64,000 nucleotides of DNA, taken from the NCBI GenBank assembly GCA_034439615.1, contig JAWXAT010000010.1:5001-69000 (forward strand), given 5' to 3'. Positions within the stretch are counted from its first letter, which is position 1; every line of letters begins with the position of its first letter. Shown one piece after another: positions 384 to 57,576 of this stretch. The position numbers and the translations under genes are program-made. The DNA comes from Oligoflexia bacterium. GTDB lineage: Bacteria > Bdellovibrionota > Bdellovibrionia > JABDDW01. The notes beneath the pieces are model-generated. The model did no database searches, was not told where the DNA came from, and was given only the letters and a program-made list of their open reading frames with translations.

Positions 384-488
384 ATAATTTCTGATCGATA
401 TTTGATTCGAAACCAAATGGATCTACGAATGTGTAACTTCTCGTCGAGGTGACGAAAATCACCCTTACATATAGAACAAATCTATATA

Positions 489-800
489 TTGTATAGATAT
501 CAAGGAGTGGTTACGTTAGTAAGATTTGAATGGGATGAAAAGAAGAATAAATCAAATCGCCGGAAACGTGGAGTTTGGTTTGAAGAGGCGACCCATGTAT
601 TCGGTGATCCTTATCACCGCTTCTTTTTAGATAAAGACCACTCAGACCATGAAGATAGATATATCGTTATTGGTTATGGGGCTGAGAACAGATTACTTGT
701 TGTAATCCATGTTTATTGTAACGCCACTGAGATCGTGAGAATTGTGTCCGCTCGTAGAGCAACAAAAAAAGAGAGGCTATATTATGAAGAAGGAATATAA
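489..800 (+). CDS. brnT: BrnT-family toxin (DUF497, type II TA ribonuclease)
   Basis: FEWDEKKNKSNRRKRG...FEEA..VFGDPY matches the BrnT N-terminal signature. The ~100-aa size fits. The gene overlaps the downstream antitoxin-like gene. The start is uncertain: the track uses TTG at 489 and aaggag lies at 501-506. Confidence 0.65.
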   Translation: MYRYQGVVTLVRFEWDEKKNKSNRRKRGVWFEEATHVFGDPYHRFFLDKDHSDHEDRYIVIGYGAENRLLVVIHVYCNATEIVRIVSARRATKKERLYYEEGI

Positions 801-999
801 TTTTTCAAAAATGAAAGAAGCAGCTAATCCTCTTAAAGGCAAGAAGATTGGTGTTGGCATTAATTTGAGTCCTACGGTTATTGATTATTTCAAAAAGATG
901 AGCGAAGAAACAGCAATTCCTTATCAAAAACTTATCGATATGTATCTTTTGGATTGTGTGCAAAAAAAGAAGAAGCTCAAGTTAGATTGGGCTGGGTAA
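784..999 (+). CDS. brnA: BrnA-like antitoxin (CopG/RHH-like)
   Basis: A 71-aa ORF beginning MKKEYNFSK overlaps the brnT 3' end, the typical BrnT-BrnA arrangement. The small basic C-terminus resembles BrnA. Confidence 0.55.
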   Translation: MKKEYNFSKMKEAANPLKGKKIGVGINLSPTVIDYFKKMSEETAIPYQKLIDMYLLDCVQKKKKLKLDWAG

Positions 1000-1061
1000 T
1001 ATGTTGCTACCGAAAGTAATAGTTTCTGACTTCTATTTGAATCGAAATACAAAGTGAAAAC

Positions 1062-1134
1062 GAGTACCACAAGATTACACCTATGGAGTTAGGCTTCTAT
1101 TAGATGCCTAACTCCATAGGGCGATGATTTCTGA
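1062..1134. repeat. ~75-bp palindromic intergenic repeat, copy 1
   Basis: Contains a 15-bp-arm hairpin cctatggagttaggc-N11-gcctaactccatagg. A second, near-identical copy (nearly identical hairpin arms; several substitutions and an indel in the 5' flank) lies at 52134-52210. Confidence 0.75.
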
Positions 1135-1373
1135 CTTTATTCTGACTTTATAAAGAGTGACCTCAAGTAGGTCATAGTTGTCTAAATCGTGGCCAGGCTT
1201 AACCTAGACCTGCCCCCAAGCGTACTTACAACCCCTTAATAATTCTCATGTATTTTCTTGTCACATTGCTCTCAGGACGGCTTTTCAGCTGGTACTAATT
1301 ATGCAATTAAAGTGGTTCAAGGTCGCTGCGGGCGTGCTATAAAGCAGGCGTAAACTCTAAGGTGGGCGTGGAT

Positions 1374-1793
1374 ATGACGAACTTAAACATATTTGATTGG
1401 ACCGCAAGCATTAGCGAAAACTTGCGTCGCACCATTGATAAAAATCCCAAGAAAAATGTTGAGCTCACAGTTATTCTTGAAGTTCCATGTCTTCATGGCC
1501 TTCATGATGCCAAAGATTTTCGTGAACATTTTTTTGAAATTAAAACCAATAATGATCTCTGGAAAACTCAAGTTTTTAATCTTGAAGTTTTATCATACAA
1601 TTTTGTTCCTGATGAAAACGACACTTCAAAAATACCTTCGGGCGTTTTATTTATTAAGGTTAAAGGTTCAGTAAAAAATATTTTTAAAGCGGTTAAAGAA
1701 GTACGCTTCTTAGATGATGAAGAAGGTCACCCTAGACGCTTTGCTATTTCTAAAGCATCAATGGATTCTGAAATACTCACATTAAATTCCTGA
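1374..1793 (+). CDS. Hypothetical protein
   Basis: 140-aa ORF with no recognisable motifs. ORFs on both strands inside it look spurious. Confidence 0.35.
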   Translation: MTNLNIFDWTASISENLRRTIDKNPKKNVELTVILEVPCLHGLHDAKDFREHFFEIKTNNDLWKTQVFNLEVLSYNFVPDENDTSKIPSGVLFIKVKGSVKNIFKAVKEVRFLDDEEGHPRRFAISKASMDSEILTLNS

Positions 1794-2795
1794 TTTAAGC
1801 ATTTCAATGGCACCTTTGCAGGTGAAGTGAACTCCGTCGTTCCAATACCTAACTGATTTATCATCATTTGGAATACCAGAGAAAAAATCTAAAACTTTTA
1901 CATTTGAAATTTTAAGAGCTTTAAGTTTTTCAATCCATTGGCCATGGCGTTCTATAACTTCTGGGAAATCTTTTGTCAGTCTGATTGTGAATTGTGGATA
2001 ATAAGGCGGAATTAAGACTAACACCTCAATACCCATTTCACTTAAGGCATTTAATTTTTTAACAAAAGCTGACCACGCTTGAGGTGATTGTTGTTTTTTT
2101 AAAACATTCCGAGAATATGTATCGTATGTGATTCCTGTTTCTTTTTGAAGTTCATGGGGTGTTTTTTCACCTATGTATTCATCACTATCACAAAGTTCAT
2201 CATCAAGGTGCCAGCCACTTCCTCGATCTAGTTCGTACTGATCAGAATTATTAAGTGCGTAAAAAGATGCCTCAAGCGTATTATGATCAATGAGCCCCAA
2301 ATATTGACTAAATTTAGCAGACAAATTTGATTCGCCAAAACCTTCTTCAAGATACGCACGTAGTGCGGGCGTGTTTTTAATTTTTGCATCAGCGACATCT
2401 GTTATGAGTTCAAAATAATCAGCATACCAAATCACTTTTTTAAGTTTTAGTTTTTCTAAAGCAATATTGAGAAAAGCAATTTTAGCAGACAATTCTGAAG
2501 CGCCCATTGAGAGGTTAATAACTTTTAATTTTTCACGCTTCTCAATCCATTTAAGTGGAGTGGTTTGCCCTCTAGATGATCCTAAAATTGCAATTTCAGC
2601 ATCAGGGTGTGCTAATACTTTTTGGCCAATCTGATAAAAATGATTACGCGTACGTTTTGTTAAATCGAGTTTTTCACAATTGTAATAGCACATCGGATCA
2701 ACACGGTAGTTAAACACAGCAATGACCAATAAAATTACTAATGTCACAGACGCTGATATAAAAAGTGCTGTTTTTGGATTCATTTTAATCCTCAA
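1782..2795 (-). CDS. DltD/AlgJ-like (SGNH-type) O-acyltransferase partner protein with an N-terminal membrane anchor
   Basis: N-terminal TM helix followed by a periplasmic domain. The gene is translationally coupled (4-nt overlap) to the upstream MBOAT gene, as in dltBD, algIJ and patAB pairs. Confidence 0.5.
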   Translation of the reverse strand: MRIKMNPKTALFISASVTLVILLVIAVFNYRVDPMCYYNCEKLDLTKRTRNHFYQIGQKVLAHPDAEIAILGSSRGQTTPLKWIEKREKLKVINLSMGASELSAKIAFLNIALEKLKLKKVIWYADYFELITDVADAKIKNTPALRAYLEEGFGESNLSAKFSQYLGLIDHNTLEASFYALNNSDQYELDRGSGWHLDDELCDSDEYIGEKTPHELQKETGITYDTYSRNVLKKQQSPQAWSAFVKKLNALSEMGIEVLVLIPPYYPQFTIRLTKDFPEVIERHGQWIEKLKALKISNVKVLDFFSGIPNDDKSVRYWNDGVHFTCKGAIEMLKSGI

Positions 2796-4207
2796 AACTG
2801 AAAGTAAAGAAACGGCGATTCATCGCCCATATACATCAAACAAACAGCAAATAATAATCCCAATACCAAAGCAGTAACTCGCGAGGGTTTAAGATTTATC
2901 TCCCACGTATTTTTACTAAAAAATGCCAACAACACAGACAATGCTAAGGCGATAAAAAATCGATCTTTATGTCTTTCGGGGAGAGATAAAACATCCCAAG
3001 TGAGATCGCCATTAAGCAAAAATACTTTTTGTAACCATAAAAATGCCGTTGAAAAATCAGGGGCACGAAAGAATATCCAACCTAAATTCACGAGCAAAAA
3101 AGTAAACATCCATTTTACTGTGTTGTTATTTAAAAGATTCCAGTTTCGATCTTTAAAAAATCTTTCTGTGCACAATATAATTCCGTGAAAAAGACCCCAG
3201 GCAAAAAATGTCCAATTTGCACCATGCCACATTCCACCAATTGCCATGGTGATTAAAAGATTTCTATACGTCAGTAATTTCCCAAAGCGATTACCACCCA
3301 ACGAGACGTAGAGATAATCTTTTAACCATGAAGACAAAGTAATATGCCATCTTTGCCAGAATTCAGTTATCGAACGTGCTTTATATGGTGAATTAAAATT
3401 TTGAGGAAACTGAATATTCATCATCAAACCCAAACCCACGGCCATGTCTGAATAACCACTGAAATCAAAGTAAAGTTGCATTGTGTAACCAAGCATAGCC
3501 AAAACGGCCTCCGTGTTTGAAGCCGATGACATATTAGTTACAAGTGGTGAAACAATGAGAGCCAAAAGATCTGCGATAAGAATTTTTTTAGACAAGCCGA
3601 GAATAAAAAATGCGCAACCTCTCCAAAAATTATCAGCAGTGAAATTATAAGTTTTACTATCTTCAAGCTGCGGAACAATTTGATTGTGCCTTACAAGGGG
3701 CCCAGAAATTTGATGAGGGAATAAAGTCACATAACTTGCAAATGAAAGTAACCTTGCATGTGCTGTGGAGGTTCCTCGATAAACATCGATAACATATGAA
3801 AGTGACTGAAATGTATAAAAAGAAATTCCAATGGGCAATACAAGCGCCAACGTTGGAAGTACCGTGCTTGCGCCCGTTAACACATCTAGTACTTCATTAA
3901 GTGTTCCAGCAAAAAAATTATAATATTTAAAAAACCCAAGTACTGAAAAATTAGTTACAAGTGAAACTATTAAAAGTCTTTTTTTGATTTTTAATTCTTT
4001 TGTATTAAAAATTTTCTTCGCTAAATAAAAATCAAGAATTACTGTGAATAAAAGCAAAAAAACGTACTTAGTACTCCAATAGGCATAAAAGACAACACTC
4101 GATAGGAATAGAAAAAATAGCTGCGCCCTTGGGTTTTTAATCAGGTAATACCCAAGCAAAGTGATGGGCAAAAATACAAAAATGAAGACATATGAATTAA
4201 AGAGCAT
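2792..4207 (-). CDS. MBOAT-family membrane-bound O-acyltransferase (DltB/AlgI/PatA-like)
   Basis: Polytopic membrane protein carrying the MBOAT signature region FWQRWHITLSSWLKDYLYVSLGGNR with the conserved His. Confidence 0.85.
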   Translation of the reverse strand: MLFNSYVFIFVFLPITLLGYYLIKNPRAQLFFLFLSSVVFYAYWSTKYVFLLLFTVILDFYLAKKIFNTKELKIKKRLLIVSLVTNFSVLGFFKYYNFFAGTLNEVLDVLTGASTVLPTLALVLPIGISFYTFQSLSYVIDVYRGTSTAHARLLSFASYVTLFPHQISGPLVRHNQIVPQLEDSKTYNFTADNFWRGCAFFILGLSKKILIADLLALIVSPLVTNMSSASNTEAVLAMLGYTMQLYFDFSGYSDMAVGLGLMMNIQFPQNFNSPYKARSITEFWQRWHITLSSWLKDYLYVSLGGNRFGKLLTYRNLLITMAIGGMWHGANWTFFAWGLFHGIILCTERFFKDRNWNLLNNNTVKWMFTFLLVNLGWIFFRAPDFSTAFLWLQKVFLLNGDLTWDVLSLPERHKDRFFIALALSVLLAFFSKNTWEINLKPSRVTALVLGLLFAVCLMYMGDESPFLYFQF

Positions 4208-4346
4208 TTCTTATTATTAATAGAGTGGATTTGGGGTGTCTATGACAGAAATTCTTGCCCAAAAGCCACCTTCTATGGGAGAAAGTGATTCAAAATCATT
4301 ATCGCAAGTGTCTGGCCCCAGTGGTCAGCTTTTAAGGAGTTATAAA

Positions 4347-4769
4347 ATGGAACAAACTTTCAGTATTATTAAGCCCAATGGTGTGAAAAAAAACGTTATT
4401 GGCAAAGTCATTGATCGTTTCGAATCAAGCGGTCTAACAATTGCTGCGGCAAAACTAGCACACCTTGATCGCGCAAAAGCAGAGGGTTTCTACGCAGAAC
4501 ATAAAGAACGCCCCTTCTTTGGTGAACTTGTACAATTTATGACTTCTGGCCCGGTTCTATTAATGGTTCTTCAAGGTGAAAACGCCGTTGAAAAAAATCG
4601 CAAAATCATGGGCGCAACTGATCCTAAAAAAGCTGATCCCGGCACCATTCGACGTGATCTAGGTGATAGCATGGGTGAGAATACCGTTCATGGCTCTGAT
4701 AGTCTCGCAAGCGCTAAGCGCGAAATTGCTTTTTTCTTTGAACCAAACGAACTTGTCAACGCTCGATAA
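4347..4769 (+). CDS. ndk: Nucleoside diphosphate kinase
   Basis: [13 protein letters not shown]...NTVHGSDS is the Ndk active-site region. aaggag lies 8 nt upstream of the ATG at 4347. Length is 140 aa. Confidence 0.9.
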
Positions 4770-4785
4770 AAATTCAGAAATCACA

Positions 4786-5913
4786 GTGCCCATCGCTTCT
4801 CTCTCATACGGAGGAAGCGGTGTGGGCCGCTATAATAATTTTGTTATTTTCACACCCTACACGGCACCCGGCGATGTCGCGCGCGTGCGTATACTCAATC
4901 ACAAAAAAAGCTACGCTGAAGCAGAACTAATATCTATCGAGGCGCCATCGAGTTCTCGAGTAAATCCCCCATGCCCCGTTTTTATGAAATGCGGGGGCTG
5001 TCAATGGCAGCATGTGACCTATCAAGAACAATTAAAACAAAAACAACTCATCGTTGAACATGCGCTCAATCGCATTGCTCACGAAAGCGATATTGAAATT
5101 TTACCGATTATCCCCTCACCTCAAGAATTTCATTACCGAAACCGCGCACAATTTCGTGCCGAGGGAAAAACCGTGGGGTTTTATCAAAAAAAATCTCACA
5201 ATATAATCGAATTTGAAAAATGCCTTATCATCGATGAAAAACTTAACGAAGAATTGGCAAAAATTAAAAATGAACGCATCAATACTCCATCAGAAAAAAC
5301 AGACAAGATTGAAGTATTTTTATCTCAGAAAAATGCAGTCATTCGCTCACTCAATCATGCACATGGCGAAGAATCGGGGTTTTCTCAAGTAAACACTCAG
5401 CAAAATGAACAAATGCTCAAATATGTTGCCGATCTTTTAGGAACACCTGGTCAAATCGCCACCGATAATAGCTTCGCGGGCAATCTCTTGGATCTTTACT
5501 GTGGAAATGGCAATTTCTCCCTACCCTTAAACAAAAAAGGATGGCGCATTCACGGAATCGATAACAATCGGTCAGCCATTCAAGCAGCTCGCGAAACAGC
5601 AAGCCAAAGCGCATTTTTTTCTCCAGAAGATTGCACTTTAGGAGTGACGAAATTAGCCTCTCAAAATCGAAAATTCGAAGTGATTCTCATAGACCCGCCC
5701 CGCGTCGGAGCCGATGAACGCATATGGACATCTTTGGCAAAATTAGCGGCACCAAAAATTGTGTATGTGAGTTGTAACCCCACCACTTTTGCTCGTGATT
5801 GGGCTCGCCTTAAGCAAACTGCCCCCTACAAACTCATCAGCATTCAACCCTTTGATATGTTCCCTCAGACTTTTCATGTGGAATTAGTCGCTACAGCGGT
5901 GCTTCAAAAATAA
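4786..5913 (+). CDS. rlmD: 23S rRNA (uracil-C5)-methyltransferase, RlmD/RumA type (TRAM + 4Fe-4S + SAM methyltransferase)
   Basis: TRAM-like N-terminus, a CPVFMKCGGCQWQH cysteine cluster, and C-terminal methyltransferase motifs (LDLYCGNGNFSLPL, IDPPRVG). There is no ATG after the ndk stop. An in-frame GTG at 4786 is proposed as the start. Confidence 0.7.
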   Translation: MPIASLSYGGSGVGRYNNFVIFTPYTAPGDVARVRILNHKKSYAEAELISIEAPSSSRVNPPCPVFMKCGGCQWQHVTYQEQLKQKQLIVEHALNRIAHESDIEILPIIPSPQEFHYRNRAQFRAEGKTVGFYQKKSHNIIEFEKCLIIDEKLNEELAKIKNERINTPSEKTDKIEVFLSQKNAVIRSLNHAHGEESGFSQVNTQQNEQMLKYVADLLGTPGQIATDNSFAGNLLDLYCGNGNFSLPLNKKGWRIHGIDNNRSAIQAARETASQSAFFSPEDCTLGVTKLASQNRKFEVILIDPPRVGADERIWTSLAKLAAPKIVYVSCNPTTFARDWARLKQTAPYKLISIQPFDMFPQTFHVELVATAVLQK

Positions 5914-18364: not shown

Positions 18365-18934
18365 TTATGAGACTGGTTCAATATTAAAATACTTTAAAAA
18401 ATCCTCGTGAGGACTCGCAATAATCTCTGTACGAATGAGTGTACCTTTATCAGCTATCGACGATATTCCATCTGCCACACTGGCTTGTACATTTTCTAAT
18501 GTGCCAGTAACAAAGTAATATGCTTTTCCACCAATTCCTCTAGCCATTCTAAAATCAATCAAATGAACATCGGCTGCTTTACAAGCACGATCTGCACTGA
18601 TTAACCCCGAGCTCACCGCTGCGGTTTCAACAATACCAATGCTTTCTAAAACAGGAAATCGATTTTGAGAATACATTCCCGGTAAAACTTCAGGATGCAA
18701 ATATGGAATATACACTTCATCAATAATTTGATTTGCAGCTAACTCCAGTAACTCTTTTCTGCTTTCTTCAACACTTGCTTCATCACCATTGATTAAAATA
18801 AAAAACTTACCTGGGCTCACGGCAGCTGCTTCAAGAATTCGTACAGGTGCTTTTTTAACAAGTTTGTCTAAAAGGAAATATCCCCGCGCAATGCTTGAGA
18901 TTTCAAAAGACGCAATGGCTGGGCCAAATATCAT
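18365..18934 (-). CDS. Tandem BMC-domain shell protein (BMC-T, PduT-like)
   Basis: 189 aa containing two consecutive BMC-like domains. The second (SIGIVETAAVSSGLISADRACKAADVHL...) is canonical. Confidence 0.7.
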   Translation of the reverse strand: MIFGPAIASFEISSIARGYFLLDKLVKKAPVRILEAAAVSPGKFFILINGDEASVEESRKELLELAANQIIDEVYIPYLHPEVLPGMYSQNRFPVLESIGIVETAAVSSGLISADRACKAADVHLIDFRMARGIGGKAYYFVTGTLENVQASVADGISSIADKGTLIRTEIIASPHEDFLKYFNIEPVS

Positions 18935-20331
18935 ACAATCCTAAAATGATCTTTAAGTGTGCAACGACGTACGCGACTAAAATTACGAGCCGTTGTCATG
19001 CCTTCTCCTGTGGGTGAAGCAATTGTAAATGAAGTATAACCTTCACCACCCATTCCAAGGCCAGCATAACTAGGAGCATTTTTAACAAAGATACTTGTAT
19101 TGATCACTTTTGCCATTTTGTGAAGATGATCGATGTGACGAGAATGCATAACAGCCGTGTGACCGTAGCCATGCTCAACACGTTTTGCCATATCAATTGC
19201 CGCGTGTACATTGGGTGCACGAACAAAACCAACAACGGGCATTAATAGTTCTAACTGTACAAAAGGATGATTCTCAGAAACATCAGCAAAGATAAGCCTT
19301 AGTTCATCACCAGCTGGAACTCCAATTTCTTTTAAAATAACACCTGCGTTTTTGCCTACGAATTTTTTTGCCGGGTATTTTCCATCAACAACTACTTTTT
19401 CAAGTCTACGCGTTTGCTCAGCCGATAATTGATAAGCGCCAAAAGTTTTTAAAAGTTTAGCTAACTCATCTGCAACAGCGTCAACCACAATAATTTCTTT
19501 TTCAACGATACAGACAATATTATTATCAAGACTTGCACCAGCGATAATATCCCGCGCAGCTTTTGCAAGATCAGCTGTTTCATCGACAACTACTGGTGGG
19601 TTACCAGGGCCTGCTCCAATAACTTTTTTGCCAGAACTCATAGCCTCTTTCACAACACCGGGACCACCCGTGACAACAAGTAATCTAATACCGGGGTGGC
19701 GCATAAGTTCTTTTGCAGAATCAATTGTTGGTTCACGTAATACTGTGATGCAATTATCTGGCCCACCGTTTTGCACAATGACTTGATTCATCACATCGAC
19801 AACTTTTGCACAGACTTTTTTAGCTGAAGGATGTGGGTTAAATACGACAGTGTTACCAGCTGAAATGATACTGATACCATTATTGATAATTGTTTCCGTA
19901 GAATTTGTTGTGGGTGTGATGCTTCCTAAAACTCCAAATGGGGCATATTCCATAAGTGCTAGGCCATCATCGCCTGTGAAAACTTCAGGATTTAAAATTT
20001 CAGGGCCAGGAGTTTTATCTATTACTAAAAGATTTTTTTTAACTTTATCTTCAACGCGGCCAAGACCAGTTTCGCTCACAGCCTCAGCTGCCATCCATTG
20101 TAAACATTCACGAAGGCGACACCGTAATTTATCAATTATTCGTTTACGATGATCAAGTCTCAGTGCTGACCAAACAGGAAAAGCTGTTTGTGCTGCTTCA
20201 ACTGCGCGATTGACGTCGCTGAAAATGCCTCGTGAACCAGCAACTGGAGATTCTTTTTGTTCAACCTCACCCATGCGTGAAAGTACACGCTTCACAAGAA
20301 CGTTAATTTGCTCTTGATCAAGAGTTGACAT
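18931..20331 (-). CDS. CoA-acylating aldehyde dehydrogenase (EutE/PduP-like) with an N-terminal encapsulation-peptide-like helix
   Basis: ALDH-superfamily core with catalytic Cys in NNIVCIVEKE. The amphipathic N-terminal helix STLDQEQINVLVKRVLSRM precedes a linker. The start is taken at the Met at 20331; the longer ORF runs to 20364. Confidence 0.8.
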   Translation of the reverse strand: MSTLDQEQINVLVKRVLSRMGEVEQKESPVAGSRGIFSDVNRAVEAAQTAFPVWSALRLDHRKRIIDKLRCRLRECLQWMAAEAVSETGLGRVEDKVKKNLLVIDKTPGPEILNPEVFTGDDGLALMEYAPFGVLGSITPTTNSTETIINNGISIISAGNTVVFNPHPSAKKVCAKVVDVMNQVIVQNGGPDNCITVLREPTIDSAKELMRHPGIRLLVVTGGPGVVKEAMSSGKKVIGAGPGNPPVVVDETADLAKAARDIIAGASLDNNIVCIVEKEIIVVDAVADELAKLLKTFGAYQLSAEQTRRLEKVVVDGKYPAKKFVGKNAGVILKEIGVPAGDELRLIFADVSENHPFVQLELLMPVVGFVRAPNVHAAIDMAKRVEHGYGHTAVMHSRHIDHLHKMAKVINTSIFVKNAPSYAGLGMGGEGYTSFTIASPTGEGMTTARNFSRVRRCTLKDHFRIV

Positions 20332-20587
20332 CAATGGTGTCCACGATGGCCATGATGACGGCATCTACTGGTTTATTTTGCGTAGTTTGAGTTTGTCGAG
20401 CTGAGCTACCTGTGGCGAACAAAACTGTTTCACCAACACCAGCTCCTACAGAATCAATGGCAACAATCACTCCGCCAGCGTTTTTACCGCTAGCATCGAT
20501 TTGTTGAACCACGAGCATTGTCATACCCTGAAGCTTTTCGTCTTTTCGGGTGGCGACACATGTCCCCACCACTTTCCCTAACAGCAT
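20318..20587 (-). CDS. BMC vertex protein (BMC-P), third paralog
   Basis: 89 aa. MLLGKVVGTCVATRKDEKL...GETVLFATG matches the EutN/CcmL family. Confidence 0.85.
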   Translation of the reverse strand: MLLGKVVGTCVATRKDEKLQGMTMLVVQQIDASGKNAGGVIVAIDSVGAGVGETVLFATGSSARQTQTTQNKPVDAVIMAIVDTIDVNS

Positions 20588-20649: not shown

Positions 20650-20958
20650 TTACTTATTGTTAACGCGTTTTGCGCCACGACCAAGTGGAAGAGCCATATC
20701 GATGTTGCCATGAGGACGAGGAATAACGTGTACACTTACAAGTTCGCCTACTTTTTCAGCAGCGCGTGAACCCGCTTCTGTTGCAGCTTTCACTGCAGCA
20801 ACGTCGCCACGAACGATAGCAGTTACATAACCACCACCAATTTTTTCGTAACCAACGAGTTCTACTTTTGCAGCTTTAACCATGGCGTCGGAAGCTTCAA
20901 CCATTCCGATAAAACCTTTGGTTTCGATCATGCCTAATGCGTCTGATGAATTATCCAT
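20650..20958 (-). CDS. BMC hexamer shell protein (BMC-H; PduA/EutM-like)
   Basis: [53 protein letters not shown] is the canonical Pfam00936 sequence. Confidence 0.9.
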
Positions 20959-26770: not shown

Positions 26771-26773
26771 AAA

Positions 26774-26941
26774 TGCACGGCCTTACTTTTGGTAATTATT
26801 TGAGTTAATTTGCATTTAAAAAGCAAACAAACGGCTCCTCAGGTTTTTTCCATCTAGATTTAAGTCTTAAAAACCTCAATTCCACTACATTCGTTATTAT
26901 ATCCAATTAAAGCTCATAATTACCAAAAGTAAGGCCGTGCA
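26774..26941. repeat. Inverted-repeat element, copy 1 (26-bp perfect arms, 116-nt spacer)
   Basis: tgcacggccttacttttggtaattat ... ataattaccaaaagtaaggccgtgca. It starts 3 nt after the permease stop. A related copy lies at 41591-41689. Confidence 0.75.
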
Positions 26942-27054
26942 TTTCGTGGCTCGACGGAGGTCCTCAAGTATTCAAGGGTTTGGGCCGATATAATCATTGG
27001 TGAGATGTGTTTAAGCGCATCCATTGATGTCTATTTTATTACCCGGAGGGGCAG

Positions 27055-30255: not shown

Positions 30256-31728
30256 ATGAAGATTAAGGTGAAAATGTTGATATTTTTATTTCTAGGATTT
30301 CTTATCCTGGTACCAAATCAAAGTTTTGCTGGAAAGCAATACATCGGCCTTACCATTGGTTTGACTGAGGAAAAGAAAGTTCCAAACATGCCTGATACTT
30401 TAAGCGAAGATTCATCGTACAACCGAAGTGTTGTAAGAATCGCAATTGCTAAAGAATTAAAAATCATTCGCTTTGAGCCCCTACAAGCCGGAACCACAAA
30501 TTTTAACTTACGCGATTCAAAAGGCCGACTCATTGCCGAATACGTCATCACTGTACGAAAAAACAATCTTAACCGCGTTGCTTCAGAAATTAAAAGCCTA
30601 CTAGGTGACGTTGATGGCATTCAAATTAAAATAGTTAATAACAAGGTCATTATCGACGGAGAAATATTATTACCACGAGATATGAACCGCATTTATAGTG
30701 TTGTTACTCAATTTAGCGATGTTGCCTCAAGCATTGTTACAATGAGTCCACTTGCTCAGAAAAAAATCGCTGAACTTATTGAAAAGGATATCGGTAACCC
30801 TGAGATTCATGTTCGCGCTGTTAATGAAAAATTTATTCTTGAAGGTGTAGCTGCAAGTGAATCCGAAAAGCAAAAAGCTGAGATCATAGCAAAAACATAT
30901 GTTCCCGACATTATTATTGAAGCTGCAGAGAGTGCGGGGCTTCTTAAAAAACGTAAAATTGATTCTGTAATTAATTTATTAAGTGTTAAGCCCGGTGCTG
31001 AACCCCAACCCGGTAAAATCATCAAGGTTGTTGTTCACTTTGTTGAACTTCAAAAAGATTACACGCGGGGTTTTAGATTTCAATGGACCCCTACTTTAAA
31101 AGAAGATTCAGGAGTGCAATTCTCCACCGGTGGCAACTCACCGGGAGGAGTTTTAAGCACGATCACAGGTACAATAAACGATTTATTGCCAAAACTTAAT
31201 TTCGCAAAAGCACACGGGCATGCGCGCGTTCTTCAAAGCTCAAGCATTATCGTTCAAGATGGAAATCCCGGAATGATTAAATCAATTACGCGTATTCCAT
31301 ACACCGTTCAAAATCAGTACGGTCAACTCACAACAAATTTTGAAGAAGCTGGCATTGACATGACAATTACTCCCAGCATTGTGAGTAGCAAATCAGACAG
31401 CGTGAATATGACTATCGTATTTAGTTTAAAAAGTCTTATCGGTCAGACCGAAAAAGGCCCGCTTGTTAGTAGTAAAAGCATTTCTACTCGTCTTGCCGTA
31501 CGAAGTGCACAAAGTGCAGCAATTGGTGGACTCGTAAGCAATGACTCAAGCATGGCTTATAATCGATTACCAAAAGGTGCTAGTGAGAATCCTTTGATTT
31601 CACTGTATGCCAGTAAACAGTTTCAGCGTAACCAAAGTCAATTTGTGGTGTTTGTCACACCCGTAATTATGTATTCAGCCTCTGAAGGCAGTGATGACAT
31701 CAAAAAGAAGTTTCGCTTAAAAGAATAA
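30256..31728 (+). CDS. cpaC: Flp pilus secretin CpaC/RcpA
   Basis: Signal peptide and a C-terminal secretin domain (…GGLVSNDSSMAYNRLP…ENPLISLYAS…QFVVFVTPVIM). Confidence 0.8.
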   Translation: MKIKVKMLIFLFLGFLILVPNQSFAGKQYIGLTIGLTEEKKVPNMPDTLSEDSSYNRSVVRIAIAKELKIIRFEPLQAGTTNFNLRDSKGRLIAEYVITVRKNNLNRVASEIKSLLGDVDGIQIKIVNNKVIIDGEILLPRDMNRIYSVVTQFSDVASSIVTMSPLAQKKIAELIEKDIGNPEIHVRAVNEKFILEGVAASESEKQKAEIIAKTYVPDIIIEAAESAGLLKKRKIDSVINLLSVKPGAEPQPGKIIKVVVHFVELQKDYTRGFRFQWTPTLKEDSGVQFSTGGNSPGGVLSTITGTINDLLPKLNFAKAHGHARVLQSSSIIVQDGNPGMIKSITRIPYTVQNQYGQLTTNFEEAGIDMTITPSIVSSKSDSVNMTIVFSLKSLIGQTEKGPLVSSKSISTRLAVRSAQSAAIGGLVSNDSSMAYNRLPKGASENPLISLYASKQFQRNQSQFVVFVTPVIMYSASEGSDDIKKKFRLKE

Positions 31729-31810: not shown

Positions 31811-34006
31811 GTGGCGATCAATCAACAATGTCATATCATTGCGGTATCAGGCGGAAAAGGCGGCGTTGGCAAAAGTGTTTTTGCAGCAGGCTTTGCCCAA
31901 GCTCTGATTTTAGAATTGCGTGCTCGCGTTTTACTTATCGACCTTGATGCACAAAGTTGTGGTGATCAAAACGTCATTCTTGGTTTACGTCCGAATAAAA
32001 CAATTTCTGAAGTCGCAACGTTTAGCGGACAAATTGCGCCAGCAACAATTAATTCTCTCATTACACCACATGCATCAGGCTTACATTTTATCGGTGCTGT
32101 AAAAAGCCCTAGCGATGCCTATGATGTGAATATCGAAGGTCTTAAAAAATCTCTCGATGGCTTAAGTAATTTTTATAATTTTATCATTGTAGATGTTGGC
32201 ACTACTTTTTTAAATCCACAACTCGCAGTTATGGAAGTTGCCTCATGCGCACTGGTATTAACATTGCCTGAAATATTAGCTGTAAATCAAACCATGAAAA
32301 TGCTCAATCAACTTATGGGCATGATGTTCCCATCTGACATGCTTCAAATAGTTATTAACAAAGTGGGCGCTGGTTCACAACTCAACCCCCAGGGTGTCGC
32401 TCAAGCTTTAAGAAAAAATGTTGTGGGTTTAATTCCTCAAGACGACACAACAGCAGGTGCGGCCCTTGCTCGCTCAACCCCTTTTGTAGCGTCGCAACCC
32501 AGAACCGCAATTTCAGTAGCATTTCACGAGACCGTAAGAAAACTCACACAAGGTGGCGCACTTGATAAAATGCGACAACTTAATAAACCCAAAAGTGTTA
32601 AAGCTATTGATACAACGGGCAATCAAATCAAAGCTCTCGGTGCTGCGAGCACAACACAAGCGCGCCCCAATGATACAAAAAAATCTGAAGAGTTTGATGT
32701 TCGCACAAGTCTTAAGCGACGCTTACACCGCGGCCTTATTGAAACAATGGATCTCAAAAAAGGCATTACTGAAACAGGTGGTGATGTTGCAAAAGAAAGT
32801 GATCTGAGACTTAAAACTCAACAAGTCATTGCTAGTCTTCTTGAAAAAGAAGGGCAAAGTTTTTCTCGCGAAGAGCGCGCACAAATCGTAAAAGAAGTTC
32901 TTGATGAAGCCTTAGGCCTTGGGCCACTGGAAGATTTATTAGCTGATATCGCAGTTTCTGAAATCATGGTTAATAGACGTGATCTTATCTTCGTTGAGAG
33001 AAATGGTCGACTTACAAAATCTGATTTAAGTTTTACTAGCAACCAACAACTTCTCACAATCATAGAAAGAATCGTTACACCACTTGGTCGTCGCATTGAT
33101 GAAAAATCACCTTACGTTGATGCAAGACTTAAAGACGGAAGCCGCGTGAATGCTGTGATTCCACCACTAGCACTTGACGGCCCCTGTATCACGATAAGAA
33201 AATTTGCAAAAACTCCCATCACATATAAAGACTATGTTGGCTTTGGCACAATGACTGAACCGATGATAGATTTCTTGCGCATCTGCATTGAAAATAGACT
33301 CAACGTTATTATCAGCGGTGGTACAGGTTCTGGTAAAACAACACTCCTGAATGTGCTCTCAGGGTTTATTCCCGCTACTGAGCGCATCATAACTGTTGAA
33401 GATGCAGCAGAACTACAACTTAAACAAGAACATGTTATTCGCCTTGAAACTCGCCCCTCAAACATTGAAGGCGAGGGAGCCGTTACGATTCGCGATCTCG
33501 TACGCAACACACTACGCATGCGACCTGATAGAATTATCGTCGGAGAATGTCGAGGCGGTGAAGCATTAGATATGCTCTCAGCTATGAATACAGGTCACGA
33601 TGGAAGTTTAACAACAGTGCATTCAAATAATCCACGTGAAGCTGTTAGTCGTCTTGAAACACTTTGTTTAATGTCTGGCATGGAACTCCCAGCACGCGCC
33701 ATTCGTGAACAAGTTGCAAGTGCAATAGATCTCATTATTCAAATTAGTAGACTCTCAGATGGTACACGAAAAATTACCAGTATTACCGAAGTCATCGGAA
33801 TGCAAGGTGACATCGTCACACTTCAAGAAATTTATCGATACAAAGAAGAAGGTTTTGATAAAAATAGAAAAATCATCGGCCAATTTCAAGCTACTGGTTT
33901 TATACCAACTTTCATTGAAGAGTTTGAACGTAAAGGTGTGAAAGTTCCGCGCACACTTTTTACCGGCGTGAGTAACGGATTAGCCGCTGGAGGAGTTAAG
34001 AAATGA
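31811..34006 (+). CDS. cpaF: In-frame fusion of a TadZ/CpaE-like ParA/MinD ATPase domain and the CpaF/TadA secretion ATPase
   Basis: Residues 1-~250 carry the deviant Walker A of ParA/MinD (IIAVSGGKGGVGKS, LIDLD, IIVDVGT). Residues ~300-731 are a full CpaF (GLGPLEDLL, IMVNRRD, Walker A GGTGSGKTT, Walker B, Asp/His boxes). One continuous 731-aa frame begins at GTG. Confidence 0.8.
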   Translation: MAINQQCHIIAVSGGKGGVGKSVFAAGFAQALILELRARVLLIDLDAQSCGDQNVILGLRPNKTISEVATFSGQIAPATINSLITPHASGLHFIGAVKSPSDAYDVNIEGLKKSLDGLSNFYNFIIVDVGTTFLNPQLAVMEVASCALVLTLPEILAVNQTMKMLNQLMGMMFPSDMLQIVINKVGAGSQLNPQGVAQALRKNVVGLIPQDDTTAGAALARSTPFVASQPRTAISVAFHETVRKLTQGGALDKMRQLNKPKSVKAIDTTGNQIKALGAASTTQARPNDTKKSEEFDVRTSLKRRLHRGLIETMDLKKGITETGGDVAKESDLRLKTQQVIASLLEKEGQSFSREERAQIVKEVLDEALGLGPLEDLLADIAVSEIMVNRRDLIFVERNGRLTKSDLSFTSNQQLLTIIERIVTPLGRRIDEKSPYVDARLKDGSRVNAVIPPLALDGPCITIRKFAKTPITYKDYVGFGTMTEPMIDFLRICIENRLNVIISGGTGSGKTTLLNVLSGFIPATERIITVEDAAELQLKQEHVIRLETRPSNIEGEGAVTIRDLVRNTLRMRPDRIIVGECRGGEALDMLSAMNTGHDGSLTTVHSNNPREAVSRLETLCLMSGMELPARAIREQVASAIDLIIQISRLSDGTRKITSITEVIGMQGDIVTLQEIYRYKEEGFDKNRKIIGQFQATGFIPTFIEEFERKGVKVPRTLFTGVSNGLAAGGVKK

Positions 34007-34898: not shown

Positions 34899-36530
34899 AT
34901 GAAAACAATTTTTAATGCACTGGTTTTGACACTGAGTTTGGTTTCTATTAATGCCCACGCTCTTGTCGATTTAAAAAACGCTAATTACGCTGATGCGTGG
35001 TTAGACCTATCTATTCCCGGCACAGGTTATGATCTTAAAGTTGTTCGAGCTTATAACAGCCGCACTCTTTATAATGGTCTGTTTGGTTTTGGATGGTGTT
35101 CTGATTTTGAAACCTCACTTGAAATCACCGCCGAAGGAAATCTCAGGCTTACAGAATGTGGCGCCGGACAAGAAACACTATTTTTATCAAAAGGCTTTTC
35201 AGAAAAAGACATTGAGAAAACAGTTAAAACTATTATTGAAAAAACAAAGGCCGATAATCCCAATTCAAATGCAGCTTATTTGAATGAATTAGAAAAACGA
35301 TTAAAAACAGAAAACGCACTTCGCTCTGAGTATGCCAGTAAATACAATATCGTTCGCCCTATCGTCGATAAATCGCGCTTCTACGCTCACGGGCGTGATG
35401 TTGAATTTATTGAAAAATCTGGAAATTACTATTCACGCACAACAGTTGAAGGCAGCATTCAAAAATTTACATTGCAGGGAAAGCTTGAAAAAATTTATGA
35501 CCGCAACAGCAATTACCTCACCTTCGCTTACGACGGAAAACGCCTTCGCGATGTAGCTGACAACAATGGCCGTAAAATAAGTTTTAGCTATTATGACAAT
35601 GGCAAAGTAAAAAGCATCACCGGGCCTGGTGGAATTCAAGTCGATTATAAATTTAAGAATCTAAATGATCTCATCTATGTCAAAGCCGCTAACGGGCAGA
35701 TTTTCACATATGACTACGATGATCTCCATAATCTAACAAAAGTAACATTTCCAGATAAAGCCACTAAAGAACTTACCTACAATAAAAACTACGATCTCGT
35801 GACTTCATATAAAGATCCAGAAGGTTGCCTTGAGACTTATGATTACAAAGAGTCCGAAGACAAACCACGTGATCATTTTTGGGCAAGCGTTATTAAAAAA
35901 TGCAAAGACAAAATAATCTTGAGAGCAAAATATGAATTTTGGTACGAACTTAAAAACGATAAAACCGGAAAATATCTTAAGCGCAGTAAAACCCAAGAAA
36001 ACGATGCGAGCACAGATGTTACATATAATGAACTAGGCAAACCCATGAATGTTGCTCGTAACGGTAAATCTACAAAATTTGAATACTACGATAATGGGCT
36101 TTTGAAAAAGAAACTCACACCCGATGGAGTTTCAACAGTATTGCAATATGATGCGAATCTTAAAAAAGTTAACAAAGTTATTCGCGGCAATAAATCCAGT
36201 GAGTTCTTTTACGACACCAAAGGAAATCTCGTTAGAGCCAGTAATTCTGATGGCCAAAAAATCACACTAAACTATGATGCTCGCGGACGCATCGCTGTTA
36301 TTGAAGACCAAGCAAAACGCAAAGTAGCAATCAAGTACGAAGAGCGTTTTGGAAAGCCTTCCATTATTGAGCGTGAGGGGGTTGGCAGCATTACTGTTAA
36401 TTACGGCAAAGGTGGCGAAATCGAAAAAGTAACAAGCCCCGCCGGCCCATCGGTCGCCATTCAAGTGGCAAGTACATTTAGCAATCTTTTAGATTTATTA
36501 CAGCCCACGGGCGTAAGCTTGAGCTTTTAA
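34899..36530 (+). CDS. Secreted YD-repeat (Rhs-like repeat) protein, short form
   Basis: Signal peptide and repeated YD motifs (ISFSYYDNGKVKSITGPGG, FTYDYDDLHNLTKVTFPD, LETYDY, KFEYYDNGLLKKKL…). No C-terminal toxin domain is evident. Confidence 0.55.
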   Translation: MKTIFNALVLTLSLVSINAHALVDLKNANYADAWLDLSIPGTGYDLKVVRAYNSRTLYNGLFGFGWCSDFETSLEITAEGNLRLTECGAGQETLFLSKGFSEKDIEKTVKTIIEKTKADNPNSNAAYLNELEKRLKTENALRSEYASKYNIVRPIVDKSRFYAHGRDVEFIEKSGNYYSRTTVEGSIQKFTLQGKLEKIYDRNSNYLTFAYDGKRLRDVADNNGRKISFSYYDNGKVKSITGPGGIQVDYKFKNLNDLIYVKAANGQIFTYDYDDLHNLTKVTFPDKATKELTYNKNYDLVTSYKDPEGCLETYDYKESEDKPRDHFWASVIKKCKDKIILRAKYEFWYELKNDKTGKYLKRSKTQENDASTDVTYNELGKPMNVARNGKSTKFEYYDNGLLKKKLTPDGVSTVLQYDANLKKVNKVIRGNKSSEFFYDTKGNLVRASNSDGQKITLNYDARGRIAVIEDQAKRKVAIKYEERFGKPSIIEREGVGSITVNYGKGGEIEKVTSPAGPSVAIQVASTFSNLLDLLQPTGVSLSF

Positions 36531-37197: not shown

Positions 37198-37566
37198 TTA
37201 CCGTGGATGAGGAACCGAAGATTTCACTCTTGGAGCGATTTCTTCTAAATCCTCATCATCTTCTTTTCCATCGTTATGTCTTTTAAGTTCAAAATTTCCA
37301 AGACTGCGATCTTTTTTATCTTCACGTCGTTTACTCAATTTTGACAAAATCTTACGTACATTCGTATCTGCTGATTTGTATCCCGCCCTTGTGAGCACAA
37401 CACCGCCATCGACTGCCTCTTGAATGAGATCCACAAAGACAGATGTTTTAATCCAGTGATGAAATTCTTCTTCAACACTTTTATCACCAAACTTAGTTTG
37501 AAAAGCCAATGCAACAATAACGGTAAGGCCGAGCATTTTTATCACGAACAAAAGGTCTTTAATCAC
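37198..37566 (-). CDS. Hypothetical membrane-anchored protein with acidic C-terminus
   Basis: N-terminal TM helix. Overlaps the receiver gene by 4 nt. Confidence 0.35.
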   Translation of the reverse strand: MIKDLLFVIKMLGLTVIVALAFQTKFGDKSVEEEFHHWIKTSVFVDLIQEAVDGGVVLTRAGYKSADTNVRKILSKLSKRREDKKDRSLGNFELKRHNDGKEDDEDLEEIAPRVKSSVPHPR

Positions 37567-41590: not shown

Positions 41591-41689
41591 AGGCACGGCC
41601 TTACTTTTCGTAATCCCAATGATGTTTGCAAATCAATTATTCCGAATAAAATCAGCCATTTAGTGATTACGAAAAGTAAGGCCGTGCCT
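41591..41689. repeat. Inverted-repeat element, copy 2 (25-bp perfect arms, 49-nt spacer)
   Basis: aggcacggccttacttttcgtaatc ... gattacgaaaagtaaggccgtgcct. It exactly fills the gap between two convergent stop codons. Confidence 0.75.
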
Positions 41690-49587: not shown

Positions 49588-51465
49588 TTGGTTATGAGGA
49601 AGTCTCTTGTTTTCATACTTTTAGCACTAACTTTGGTTACACCAAATACCATGGCTGCCACGGGTATTACTATGAGTATGGACAATCCCATTCCCGATGC
49701 CATGGGTCTCTTTTTAAGTAATCCAAAAGGGCAAGATGTACTTTTACATGATCAACTCGAACATATTCTTTGGAATTACGGCATGTCGTTTAAATCCGGC
49801 CATTTTAAAGAATTATCGTTAATTCCTGATCAAGAAATTGATCTAAATAGTTTACCTCCGGAATACAAAAAATATGAAGACACCCTACATGATATAAAAT
49901 CAGCTATTAAAAAATGGACTCAAAACTACAGTATGAAAAACCCTAAGCTTGAGATGAAAATCAAAGATATAGGTTTTTCTCTCAAACTTTCACACATGTC
50001 ATTACTTCCAGATTATAATCTCTTTGCAAAATCAGGCGAAAGAGACGGGGCCATACTTGTATTAAAATTAGTTATTCCTGATATCAAAGTAAATATTCGA
50101 GCAATTGTCGCAAAAGATACTAACAATGAAATATTAAGAAGTTTTGGACTTACAGGAATCACAGCCTCTCTTGCACCTGAATGCCGGGCGGATCAAAAAG
50201 CTGACAACATTTTGGTGCCCGATTGTGTAGAAAAAAAGCAAGATCTGGTTATCACAGTACCTTTGCTTATTAAAATTGATGGTGATGGCAAGCTCATAGC
50301 TCAAACATTTAGCAAAAAAAATAACGACAAAGAGGATCCAAAAAACCCAAATCCACTATTCATAAATACAAACACGAGTGCACTTCAAATTATTTTAGGT
50401 TATGAAAAGAAGGTGTTACCACAGCTGACATTAATGGTGGCCGACTCAGCAGATGCAAAAGATTTTGATGAAAATTATAAATCAAAAAAACCCGACGCGA
50501 TAAAATTCACAACTGATCATATCGATGATATTTTTAAAAAAAATCATTCTAAATTAGTTAAAATTACACAGACCTATTTAGAAAAATTTATTCAAACACA
50601 ATTTTCTCGTGAATTTAACGGCTTTTTGTCTAAAATTTCTCACGTCATTCGAGACGTGAGTCAAATGCCTCCACCGGGTGTTCCAAAAGGCACTAAAGAA
50701 GAATTGGGTTTTCGTCGCAGCACAAAGCTTGATGAAGTCGTTCAGACAGATAAATATCTCGGATTTCGATTCAGCGGTTATGTAGAAGATCCCGAAAAAA
50801 CAACACCTGCGATTGTGTCAAAGGACACCCATCGCCATGCAGAGCCAAAACTTGCCTCCGACCAATATGATTATGCTTTTTCATTAAACCAGAACTATAT
50901 TAACCGCATTGTGCAGTTGAGTTTCAATCGAGGGTACTTTGAAAACATCGTAGTTAAAACAGAGAAAATAAAAAAAGACGATGGTACTGAAGAAATAAAG
51001 CAGAAATATATTGGCCTTGATAAACCACCAGCACTTCAATTTGACGACAGTCTCTGCAAACGCGGGCAACTAGACACAAAATTTAGAACAAGACTTAAAA
51101 TTTTTCACCATGCAGTTGGTTTTTGGGAGGATGTTGCTTTTGACAAACTTACTGCAAGTGTTGATTTGTTATTTCGCCTAAAGCCCGTGCCTGGCGGAAT
51201 TGCTGTGATTTATGATTCTTTTGATTTGAGCACCTTAAATGTCGAAGACAAAACAATTAGATTTGGGTTCGGCTGGAAAGTGAAGGGAAATATTAAAGGG
51301 ACATTGGCAGAAGAAAACAAAACCTATGCTTCTAAAGAATCAATCGCTATTGCAAAAATACCCATCCCTCCTAATTTCACAGGAATTCCCGCACAGCTCC
51401 ATACAATTTGCTCCGATGGATCGGGTCATTTAATGATGTATTTAGATAAGATGGGTGGAAAATGA
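49588..51465 (+). CDS. Large secreted hypothetical protein
   Basis: Signal peptide. 625 aa, Lys/Asp-rich. No known domain recognised. Confidence 0.4.
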   Translation: MVMRKSLVFILLALTLVTPNTMAATGITMSMDNPIPDAMGLFLSNPKGQDVLLHDQLEHILWNYGMSFKSGHFKELSLIPDQEIDLNSLPPEYKKYEDTLHDIKSAIKKWTQNYSMKNPKLEMKIKDIGFSLKLSHMSLLPDYNLFAKSGERDGAILVLKLVIPDIKVNIRAIVAKDTNNEILRSFGLTGITASLAPECRADQKADNILVPDCVEKKQDLVITVPLLIKIDGDGKLIAQTFSKKNNDKEDPKNPNPLFINTNTSALQIILGYEKKVLPQLTLMVADSADAKDFDENYKSKKPDAIKFTTDHIDDIFKKNHSKLVKITQTYLEKFIQTQFSREFNGFLSKISHVIRDVSQMPPPGVPKGTKEELGFRRSTKLDEVVQTDKYLGFRFSGYVEDPEKTTPAIVSKDTHRHAEPKLASDQYDYAFSLNQNYINRIVQLSFNRGYFENIVVKTEKIKKDDGTEEIKQKYIGLDKPPALQFDDSLCKRGQLDTKFRTRLKIFHHAVGFWEDVAFDKLTASVDLLFRLKPVPGGIAVIYDSFDLSTLNVEDKTIRFGFGWKVKGNIKGTLAEENKTYASKESIAIAKIPIPPNFTGIPAQLHTICSDGSGHLMMYLDKMGGK

Positions 51466-52052
51466 AAAAATTAGTATTTGTTTTGATTTTTATATTTTCG
51501 ACCTCAGCCTTCTCATATCAAACACTTCCCGCTATTCAGATTAAAAATCTAAATGAATTTGCAGGTTCTTATTTAACTGTTTTTTATGTCAGTGGAAGCA
51601 TGGGCTCTATGGGCCTTGATTTCCCCGGGCAAAAACCAAAAATAAATACGATTTTACCCATTGTCACTAAAGGTGCAACAGAGTCTCAGAATATTGAAAT
51701 TCCACTGCGCCGTTATTTAATCAAAGCTGAAGGTGAAATAAATATTCCAAAAGCATATATCCAAAAAATTGGAATCAGAGCTGCCACCCTTATTATTTTT
51801 GTAATTCACAAACAAGATGAGGTCTTTCTCAGAAACACGAGCAAAGAATTTGCCGATAGAATTGTTGGTGAAAAGGGCGATACACGCCTGCTTGATGATC
51901 GCACTACGATTAAAAAAACAAATAAAACACTTGAAACTGGCAATATTCAATTTCAATGTATTCAAACTTACAGCACTTGGAATTTAGGCGCACAAGTAAA
52001 TGAAAAGTCTGTTCTGCCAATGAACTTTGATTCAAAGCAATGTCTCAAATAA
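51462..52052 (+). CDS. Secreted hypothetical protein
   Basis: Signal peptide. Overlaps the preceding gene by 4 nt. Confidence 0.4.
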   Translation: MKKLVFVLIFIFSTSAFSYQTLPAIQIKNLNEFAGSYLTVFYVSGSMGSMGLDFPGQKPKINTILPIVTKGATESQNIEIPLRRYLIKAEGEINIPKAYIQKIGIRAATLIIFVIHKQDEVFLRNTSKEFADRIVGEKGDTRLLDDRTTIKKTNKTLETGNIQFQCIQTYSTWNLGAQVNEKSVLPMNFDSKQCLK

Positions 52053-52133
52053 TTTAATCTTCGCCTCAAAACCCGTGTCACAGGTAGCACACTGTTTCTG
52101 TTTCGTAACAGCCATCACCCCTGTGCATGAAAT

Positions 52134-52210
52134 GAGTACCAGGAGATTACACCTATGGAGTTAGGCATCTAATAGAGGCCTAACTCCATAGTGTGATGAT
52201 TATGACCAAG
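52134..52210. repeat. ~75-bp palindromic intergenic repeat, copy 2
   Basis: gagtacc-aggagattacacctatggagttaggcatctaatagaggcctaactccatagtgtgatgatt closely matches copy 1 at 1062-1134 and carries the same hairpin arms. Confidence 0.75.
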
Positions 52211-52382
52211 TCGTGACTTTAGAGATTATGAAAATCGAACAGGAAGAGCAAGAGAGTGAGACGAGCCGCCCTAATGTTAGCGAACCGACCACGGTTGCAA
52301 AGGATTACTCCTTTACCGTTTAAATGAAACGGGAGTTTGTAAGCAGGAAATATCGAAAAACAGAATCTTCAATACAGATTTT

Positions 52383-57499: not shown

Positions 57500-57576
57500 T
57501 GGTGCGGCCGGCAGGAGTCGAACCTGCGACCCTCAGATTCGTAGTCTGATATTCTATCCAGCTGAACTACGGCCGC
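57500..57576 (-). tRNA. tRNA-Arg (anticodon ACG)
   Basis: Reverse complement GCGGCCGTAGTTCAGCTGGATAGAATATCAGACTACGAATCTGAGGGTCGCAGGTTCGACTCCTGCCGGCCGCACCA folds into a cloverleaf with a 7/7 acceptor stem, GTTCGA T-loop and encoded CCA. Confidence 0.9.

Follow-up and report, generated by a model that had tools for sequence, protein, structure and literature searches.

A dispersed palindromic repeat in accessory DNA and beside two toxin-antitoxin operons of an Oligoflexia genome

Two copies of a palindromic unit and their surroundings

The DNA under study is a 64,000-nt stretch from an Oligoflexia bacterium (hereafter the window), in which two toxin-antitoxin (TA) operons, brnTA and vapBC, are recognised and the small ORF pairs tested yielded no further TA; both of the two carry a copy of a short palindromic element in their 3′ spacers. 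The first operon comprises the brnT toxin gene (519-800, plus strand; PF04365, E=9e-25; 'BrnT family toxin' in NCBI), which is the upstream neighbour of copy 1, and a putative brnA antitoxin gene (784-999, plus strand) that overlaps brnT and is called mainly from its operon position, its match to CopG_antitoxin being weak and sub-threshold (E=0.001, 20.2 bits against a cut-off of 28). Copy 1 spans 1057-1150 on the plus strand, in the same sense as brnTA, and its unit begins 57 nt after the brnA stop at 999; 63 nt separate that stop from the GAGTACC word at 1062, in line with the ~65 nt of the initial annotation. The second operon lies on the minus strand and consists of the vapC toxin gene (52383-52766; PIN domain, PF01850, E=1e-10) and a putative vapB antitoxin gene (52753-52968), a 71-aa ORF that overlaps vapC and has no Pfam match; such a 71-aa partner is likewise encoded upstream of VapC homologues. 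The earlier identification of the operons as brnTA and vapBC holds on these matches. Copy 2 spans 52130-52221 on the plus strand, in the orientation of copy 1, and is antisense to vapBC, with vapC convergent to it and ending 161 nt away; for the limits first given to this copy (52134-52210), the proposed distance of ~170 nt from vapBC comes to 173 nt, counted to the vapC end at 52383. The nearest gene 3′ end on the strand of copy 2 itself belongs to an orphan 196-aa gene (ORF196; 51462-52052, plus strand), which stops 77 nt before the copy and has no homologue among 5.8 billion proteins. Both copies are intergenic according to independent gene calls.

The sucD-ndk gap, in which copy 1 lies, measures 98 nt in the nearest relative (contig L004 9430-9529, of the Oligoflexia MAG nzgw168) versus 3.85 kb in the window (384-4235), where it is filled by brnTA, copy 1, an orphan 143-aa ORF, an unknown 337-aa gene and an MBOAT (AlgI-like) gene. 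From this one comparison, the core genes here appear to flank an accessory islet (384-4235), DNA that L004 lacks and that would reflect either insertion here or loss there. Copy 2 borders a 5.3-kb stretch with vapBC, a group II intron and orphan ORFs, and this islet ends at a tRNA-Arg(ACG) gene (57500-57576). The group II intron, located between vapBC and the orphan ORFs, is complete (53751-55690, minus strand; Rfam D1-D4 122.7 bits, D5/D6 55.8 bits), with a 437-aa RT/maturase ORF (53860-55173) and a GTGCG 5′ end near 55688; it lies 1.6 kb from copy 2, and a link between it and the element was rejected, as its flanks have neither a hairpin target nor similarity to the element. Likewise rejected were att sites of a tRNA-linked island: the 3′ end of tRNA-Arg has no second copy, and neither 51.9-57.8 kb nor 0.3-4.4 kb is enclosed by direct repeats. 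The core genes ndk, groES, groEL and nadE do lie between the two copies, which upholds the earlier argument that these are unlikely to be the att sites of a single island.

A repeat search of the window returned a direct repeat of 72 nt with 89% identity (1058-1129 versus 52130-52201), bearing out the initial observation of two copies of one element, ~51 kb apart and with few substitutions. In the covariance model built from three copies (the third is described below), copies 1 and 2 score 104.3 bits (E=7e-22) and 100.9 bits (E=4e-21), that is, E-values of ~1e-21. Alignment of the three copies reveals an asymmetric unit of ~90 nt, composed of a 24-nt 5′ arm, a 41-nt palindrome and a looser 3′ tail; the hairpin with 15-bp arms that had been noted at first stands, but its assignment to a ~75-bp element does not, the units being 1057-1150 and 52130-52221. 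The 5′ arm (AAAACGAGTACCACAAGATTACA in copy 1) is conserved (AAAAYGAGTACCNNNAGATTACA) and can be written AAA(A)YGAGTACCNNNAGATTACA. Copies 1 and 2 start with AAA(A)YGAG, at 1057 and 52130, and end with GACTTTA, at 1150 and 52221; the unit ends, AAAAYGAGTACC and ...TGACTTTA, are not complementary to each other, and the central palindrome is the only inverted repeat. The 3′ tail is built from an 11-nt TTCTGACTTTA-like motif, which local alignments of the 3′ flanks recover as a perfect tandem duplication of TTCTGACTTTA in copy 1 (1129-1150, plus strand), a degenerate double in copy 2 and one unit in copy 3. Of the three copies, 1 and 2 are the most closely related, and they have this extra 3′ tail in common. 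In all pairwise comparisons, homology stops exactly 24 nt 5′ of the hairpin in 3/3 copies, and similarity further upstream is random. Segmental duplication including flanking sequence, which had been named at the outset as a refuting alternative, is ruled out because this sharp 5′ boundary is identical in three contexts and the flanks are unrelated. Two further candidates were discarded: a small ORF inside the element, whose start codon, on reading the sequence, is ATG in copies 2 and 3 but ACG in copy 1 and whose length is not conserved, and a second conserved hairpin 3′ of the element, since the short hairpins after copies 1 and 3 yield no RNAalifold consensus on either strand.

The hairpin core occupies 1080-1120 in copy 1, with 15-bp perfect arms and an 11-nt semi-palindromic loop, and 52152-52192 in copy 2, for which the repeat search gives an inverted match with 98% complementarity over 40 nt. 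The arms (CCTATGGAGTTAGGC / GCCTAACTCCATAGG) pair perfectly over 15 bp in copy 1 and with one stem-base mismatch in copy 2, and the 11-nt loop is itself nearly palindromic, which gives effective arms of 19-20 bp set 1 nt apart (in copy 1, 20 nt, 95% complementary, 1 nt between). With up to 3 mismatches allowed, the arm occurs four times in the window against 0.72 expected, a number that 0/100 shuffles reach. Folding, which had been suggested as a check, gives a stable hairpin for single strands of 101-nt segments (copy 1, -34.2 kcal/mol, z=-7.1; copy 2, -36.2 kcal/mol, z=-6.1), and the opposite strands of both segments fold about equally well, as expected of a DNA palindrome. Divergence between copies is unevenly spread: the stem has 0-1 differences at 30 positions, the 5′ arm 3-5 differences per 24 nt (12-21%) and the loop 2-3 per 11 (18-27%). 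The copy 1 loop has one difference from the reverse complement of the copy 2 loop versus three from its direct sequence (on three informative positions only); the hairpin core may lie inverted in copy 1 relative to the other two copies. Next to the hairpin, copy 1 carries a tandem duplication of 11 nt and copy 3 one of 13 nt, which suggests that the DNA there is slippage-prone.

A third copy and the range of the element

The exact hairpin, queried as 11+11 specified bases with a loop of 7-15, has two matches in JGI metagenome contigs, one on L002 and one on L003. The former is a true copy (copy 3; L002 7298-7389, minus strand; 85.9 bits in the covariance model), with the same 5′ arm and hairpin as copies 1 and 2 and a 13-nt tandem duplication, ATTACACCTATG(T); three independent assemblies, from three samples, contain it without any difference. 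The latter was rejected as a chance palindrome, in which only 11-bp stem words match, on a high-GC contig with unrelated flanks and a score of 23.7 bits. By exact-sequence matches, the L002 proteins correspond to SGI74_10615-10645 (NCBI locus tags; a 54-kb contig of 'MAG: Oligoflexia bacterium') and the window proteins to SGI74_03260 and further tags from a 70-kb contig of this MAG; the shared SGI74 tags therefore place the three copies in one genome. At least three copies on two contigs are thus known from the ~77 kb of this MAG that was read, copy 3 having been found through the element itself. With its sharp 5′ edge, unrelated flanks and a third copy on another contig, the element is indeed the dispersed, discrete repeat that the initial annotation took it for.

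Copy 3 has an unknown gene on one side and an mscL-like gene on the other, and follows the stop of ORF236 by 96 nt; the gene upstream of it has its own canonical terminator (L002 7266-7283). A few kb away on the same contig are an IS transposase, a Gp49/HigB-like gene and HTH genes, which make the region mobile-element-rich. On the MAG contig of copy 3 (L094 8049-9376 and 10837-11797), the transposase, of the DDE_Tnp_1_4 type, is split in two ORFs, and the 105-aa Gp49/HigB-like gene is paired with a 98-aa ORF, with an HTH_3 gene nearby. Each of the three copies is hence in, or at the edge of, accessory (flexible) DNA. As a separate observation, the mscL-like gene (L002 7500-7781, equivalent to L094 2701-2940) is called at 79 aa only, and its frame extends upstream through a TM1-like GVIGLAIAVVIGG until it reaches a stop, with none of ATG, GTG or TTG on the way; 5′ truncation or an unusual start may account for this. 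L002 also encodes, at 4137-5071, an overlapping pair in which a 115-aa ORF precedes a 196-aa ORF with an N-terminal CxxC...CxxC. The 115-aa protein has eight near-identical cluster members on many contigs from several sources, and this wide occurrence suggests that the pair is a mobile module. Gene order and the CxxC...CxxC motif further suggest an MqsRA-like pair; searches of Pfam, PADLOC and PDB returned nothing significant for that identity.

All three copies (3/3) are intergenic and follow a stop codon by 57-96 nt (57 for brnA, 77 for ORF196 and 96 for ORF236). The window also holds a second, unrelated palindromic repeat family, with full copies at 26771-26944 and 41591-41689 and partial matches at 37513-37538 and 57845-57866. 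Its arms, (AAAT)GCACGGCCTTACTTTT(G/C)GTAAT, are 40 nt long (90% complementary) and enclose 94 nt in the first full copy, and are 25 nt long (100%) and enclose 49 nt in the second. Both full copies start directly after stop codons (of genes ending at 26770 and 41589), which indicates that this genome tolerates such elements there, and the second fills a convergent spacer. The 22-nt arm pattern of this family has no match in IMG/VR, and its 16-nt arm word none in the 93 loci collected. It looks like either a true TIR-type MITE or a bidirectional terminator family. Other features of the window, with no bearing on the repeat, are a gene for a BMC-domain (bacterial microcompartment shell) protein (20650-20958) beside an aldehyde dehydrogenase gene (18931-20364), and a gene for an RHS-repeat protein (34899-36530) downstream of type II/IV secretion genes, among them a secretin (30256-31728) and a T2SSE ATPase (31811-34006).

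Beyond the source genome, the exact hairpin has no match (0) in 185,579 species genomes or in IMG/VR; the former set consists of GTDB representatives, one per species, and the source MAG is not among them. The 5′ arm has no match in IMG/VR, and as a pattern it gave no further copy in the 93 loci. Blastn of the element found nothing in PLSDB or a phage collection, and Rfam 15 has no match to it, the group II intron and tRNA-Arg being the only features of the window to reach a gathering threshold. The three-copy covariance model detected no further copy in the window, in L004, in ten Bdellovibrionota loci drawn from a methyltransferase scan or in the TA-homologue loci. These blanks are explained by distance, because the species set comes no closer than another Oligoflexia MAG, which has only 61% amino-acid identity for a housekeeping methyltransferase. 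The JGI metagenome scan gave a single true match, though the source organism is present in those samples, which may reflect either few copies or fragmentary assembly. In the searches made, the element is, as far as can be judged from sequence, lineage-specific and confined to the lineage of its source genome.

Origin of the repeat and of its association with TA operons

We regard it as probable that the element is a lineage-specific, non-coding, dispersed palindromic repeat of the REP/MITE-like kind and that its adjacency to TA operons stems from shared residence in accessory islets; MITE/REP-like, as first proposed, is the best available label. On this explanation, a hairpin-bearing unit would have been copied around the genome, most plausibly by a trans-acting enzyme that recognises the hairpin together with the conserved 5′ arm. 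Recognition of hairpin plus flank in trans fits best because the hairpin is invariant, the arm is one-sided and at a fixed distance, terminal inverted repeats are absent, no target-site duplication is visible, and the copies sit in 3′ spacers; HUH/Y1 transposases recognise REPs and the ends of IS200/IS605 elements in this very manner. Where the unit is part of a 3′ UTR, its stable hairpin would block 3′ exonucleases and protect the upstream mRNA, in the way that E. coli REPs shield upstream mRNA from such enzymes. TA cassettes and selfish repeats would both accumulate in dispensable intergenic islets, and the neighbourhoods of brnTA and vapBC would follow from this, with the element standing outside the cassettes themselves. 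Three points count against the REP/MITE-like explanation: a high copy number is the hallmark of REPs and MITEs, yet three copies are known; both recognised TA operons of the window carry a copy 3′ of them, for which the chance of both copies falling in TA-flanking gaps (n=4) is ~0.002 (76 gaps) to 0.03 (20 gaps of at least 90 nt), an estimate from a crude gene call and post hoc, but not negligible; and no mobilising transposase was identified, terminal inverted repeats and GTAG are absent, and no target-site duplication is visible. If it is correct, the element adds one more lineage-specific palindromic repeat family, an item for annotation and a marker of flexible spacers in the poorly sampled Oligoflexia.

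Less probable by a wide measure is that the repeat is not mobile and goes back to an ancestral 3′ hairpin, of which ectopic recombination or gene conversion between spacers made a few copies, with no function or propagation of its own. The few copies known would suit such a history, as would the lack of terminal inverted repeats, of a visible target-site duplication and of an identified transposase, and the 11-nt and 13-nt duplications of copies 1 and 3 point to slippage-prone DNA. However, three unrelated contexts show one and the same sharp 5′ boundary, and the hairpin arms are identical where the rest has diverged by 12-27%; boundary and arms together imply a defined unit that is under sequence constraint or was recently copied from a template.

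We also consider it unlikely, and a little more so, that the element serves TA operons as a functional 3′ module, either as an mRNA-stabilising or terminating hairpin or as an attC/pdif-like site that captures or moves TA cassettes. The low chance (0.002-0.03) of finding a copy in the 3′ spacer of both operons speaks for such a module, and so do the closer kinship of copies 1 and 2, with their shared extra tail, and the presence in the arms of GTTAGGC / GCCTAAC, which are attC core and inverse-core words. Yet the orientation of the element relative to the operon is opposite at brnTA and vapBC, copy 3 has no TA operon beside it, the order of the words is the reverse of attC R''...R' with no extrahelical bases, and no integrase is found next to either copy. 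Nor is brnTA or vapBC bracketed by a second copy detectable by the covariance model. The informative homologous loci, searched with filters off, are equally devoid of the element: it is absent from those of the VapC relatives on L087 (71%) and L088 (81%) and of the BrnT relatives on L090 (71%) and L091/L093 (58%), and the contig of another VapC relative (L089, 78%) stops 69 nt past vapC. Since these VapC and BrnT loci are without it, the element is, on the homologues compared, not a component of either TA cassette family. With copy 3 in a non-TA setting and these four relatives (VapC at 71% and 81%, BrnT at 71% and 58%) lacking it, the idea in the initial annotation that recurrence next to TA loci is a property of the element is not borne out. 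Two further observations concern the vapBC lineage itself: a VapC 99% identical to that of the window (P0002) is encoded on a 58-kb JGI contig, and in L088 a putative tRNA gene, judged by eye from a T-arm-like sequence, lies in reverse orientation at 1897-1970, directly after vapC of the 81% relative; the vapBC lineage of the window may travel with tRNA-targeting islands.

It is improbable that the unit encodes a small structured RNA, in whole or as its 3′ end, or acts as a cis-regulatory RNA (e.g., an antisense regulator of neighbouring transcripts). This reading draws on the high stability of the hairpin (z of about -6 to -7), the conserved single-stranded 5′ arm and a TGTAAT word, resembling a -10 element, which all copies have after the hairpin on the opposite strand. 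However, no Rfam family matches, and the element has no attached promoter- or terminator-like site beyond shuffled expectation. The stem is followed by no U-tract on either strand, and an intrinsic terminator was discarded as a candidate on the same grounds: there is no T-run within 3 nt of the stem and the terminator scan calls neither strand. Compensatory changes are absent, with 16/18 pairs invariant and no double changes, which in three copies, few and similar, argues neither way. A perfect palindrome that folds equally on both strands is better suited to an element acting at the DNA level. In sum, for the structured RNA suggested initially, the search of Rfam, the pair changes and the promoter and terminator signals yield no positive evidence.

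More speculative still is the proposal that Bdellovibrionota/Oligoflexia possess an undescribed recombination system, single-strand or hairpin-directed, which would recognise the hairpin and 5′ arm and seed or capture small accessory cassettes, TA operons included, beside this site. The apparent flip of the core in copy 1 against the other two copies would on this view record recombination inside the palindrome. A real enrichment at TA or accessory cassettes would point to hairpin-based capture or mobilisation outside integrons, and would offer a cheap way to find islets in MAGs. Finally, a palindrome 3′ of TA genes with GTTAGGC / GCCTAAC might call to mind a true integron attC, the TA operons being cassettes of a degenerate chromosomal integron (a lone attC with no integrase), but this is highly implausible, as it is contradicted on defining features (inverted core-site order, motifs at the loop end and a perfect stem), the copies form no array but are separated by 51 kb that include groESL, nadE and ndk, and their orientation to the 'cassette' differs between the two TA loci.

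Comparison with known palindromic elements

The REP/BIME/REPIN elements of Enterobacteria and Pseudomonas, which are mobilised by RAYT Y1 enzymes, resemble the Oligoflexia element in being short, non-coding and intergenic, mostly located just 3′ of genes, and centred on a stable palindrome; they are similarly asymmetric with a conserved single-stranded flank, have lineage-specific sequences and are found with chromosomal TA loci. In E. coli, the variable folA-apaH spacer holds both REPs and a chromosomal TA locus, ccdO157 (PMC3184786). REPs are, however, ~35 nt long and imperfect, whereas the stem here is longer, with 15-20 bp perfectly paired in a 41-nt palindrome. REPs and REPINs come with a cognate RAYT gene and have GTAG at the 5′ foot of the hairpin, a word that stands at neither foot of this element (ACA|CCTATGG ... 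CCATAGG|G). They form inverted doublets or clusters, in contrast to the singletons that the model search returned here, and reach tens to hundreds of copies per genome, against the three seen in ~77 kb of the MAG. No transposase is encoded next to any of the three copies.

With bacterial MITEs (e.g., Correia/NEMIS of Neisseria, ERIC, RUP and Nezha) the element shares a length of ~100 bp, dispersal, intergenic position, a long hairpin and proximity to mobile or accessory DNA. The defining marks of MITEs are terminal inverted repeats and target-site duplications, whereas this element has a central inverted repeat only and unrelated ends, and its sharp 5′ edge displays no shared or duplicated flank indicative of a target-site duplication (the 3′ edge is loosely defined). 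Integron attC sites, including the Vibrio VCRs that lie 3′ of TA cassettes, offer the parallel of a palindrome 3′ of TA genes with GTTRRRY / RYYYAAC words. In attC these words sit at the base of the stem, R'' (RYYYAAC) on the 5′ side and R' (GTTRRRY) on the 3′ side, together with L''/L' boxes and extrahelical bases; in the element, as read by eye, their order is reversed (GTTAGGC-loop-GCCTAAC), they lie at the loop end and the stem is perfect. The genes neighbouring the copies include no integrase and form no cassette array. A hairpin-directed capture system of the kind considered above would nevertheless parallel attC/pdif modules in function, with a different site architecture.

The subterminal hairpins of IS200/IS605 elements and of their non-autonomous derivatives (PATEs) resemble the element in anatomy only, as a hairpin with a conserved flank at a fixed distance, no TIRs and no visible target-site duplication. 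At IS200/IS605 ends two different hairpins bracket a cargo, whereas the element has one hairpin and no tnpA/tnpB nearby. By analogy with IS200/IS605, its anatomy would fit recognition by a single-strand 'peel and paste' mechanism.
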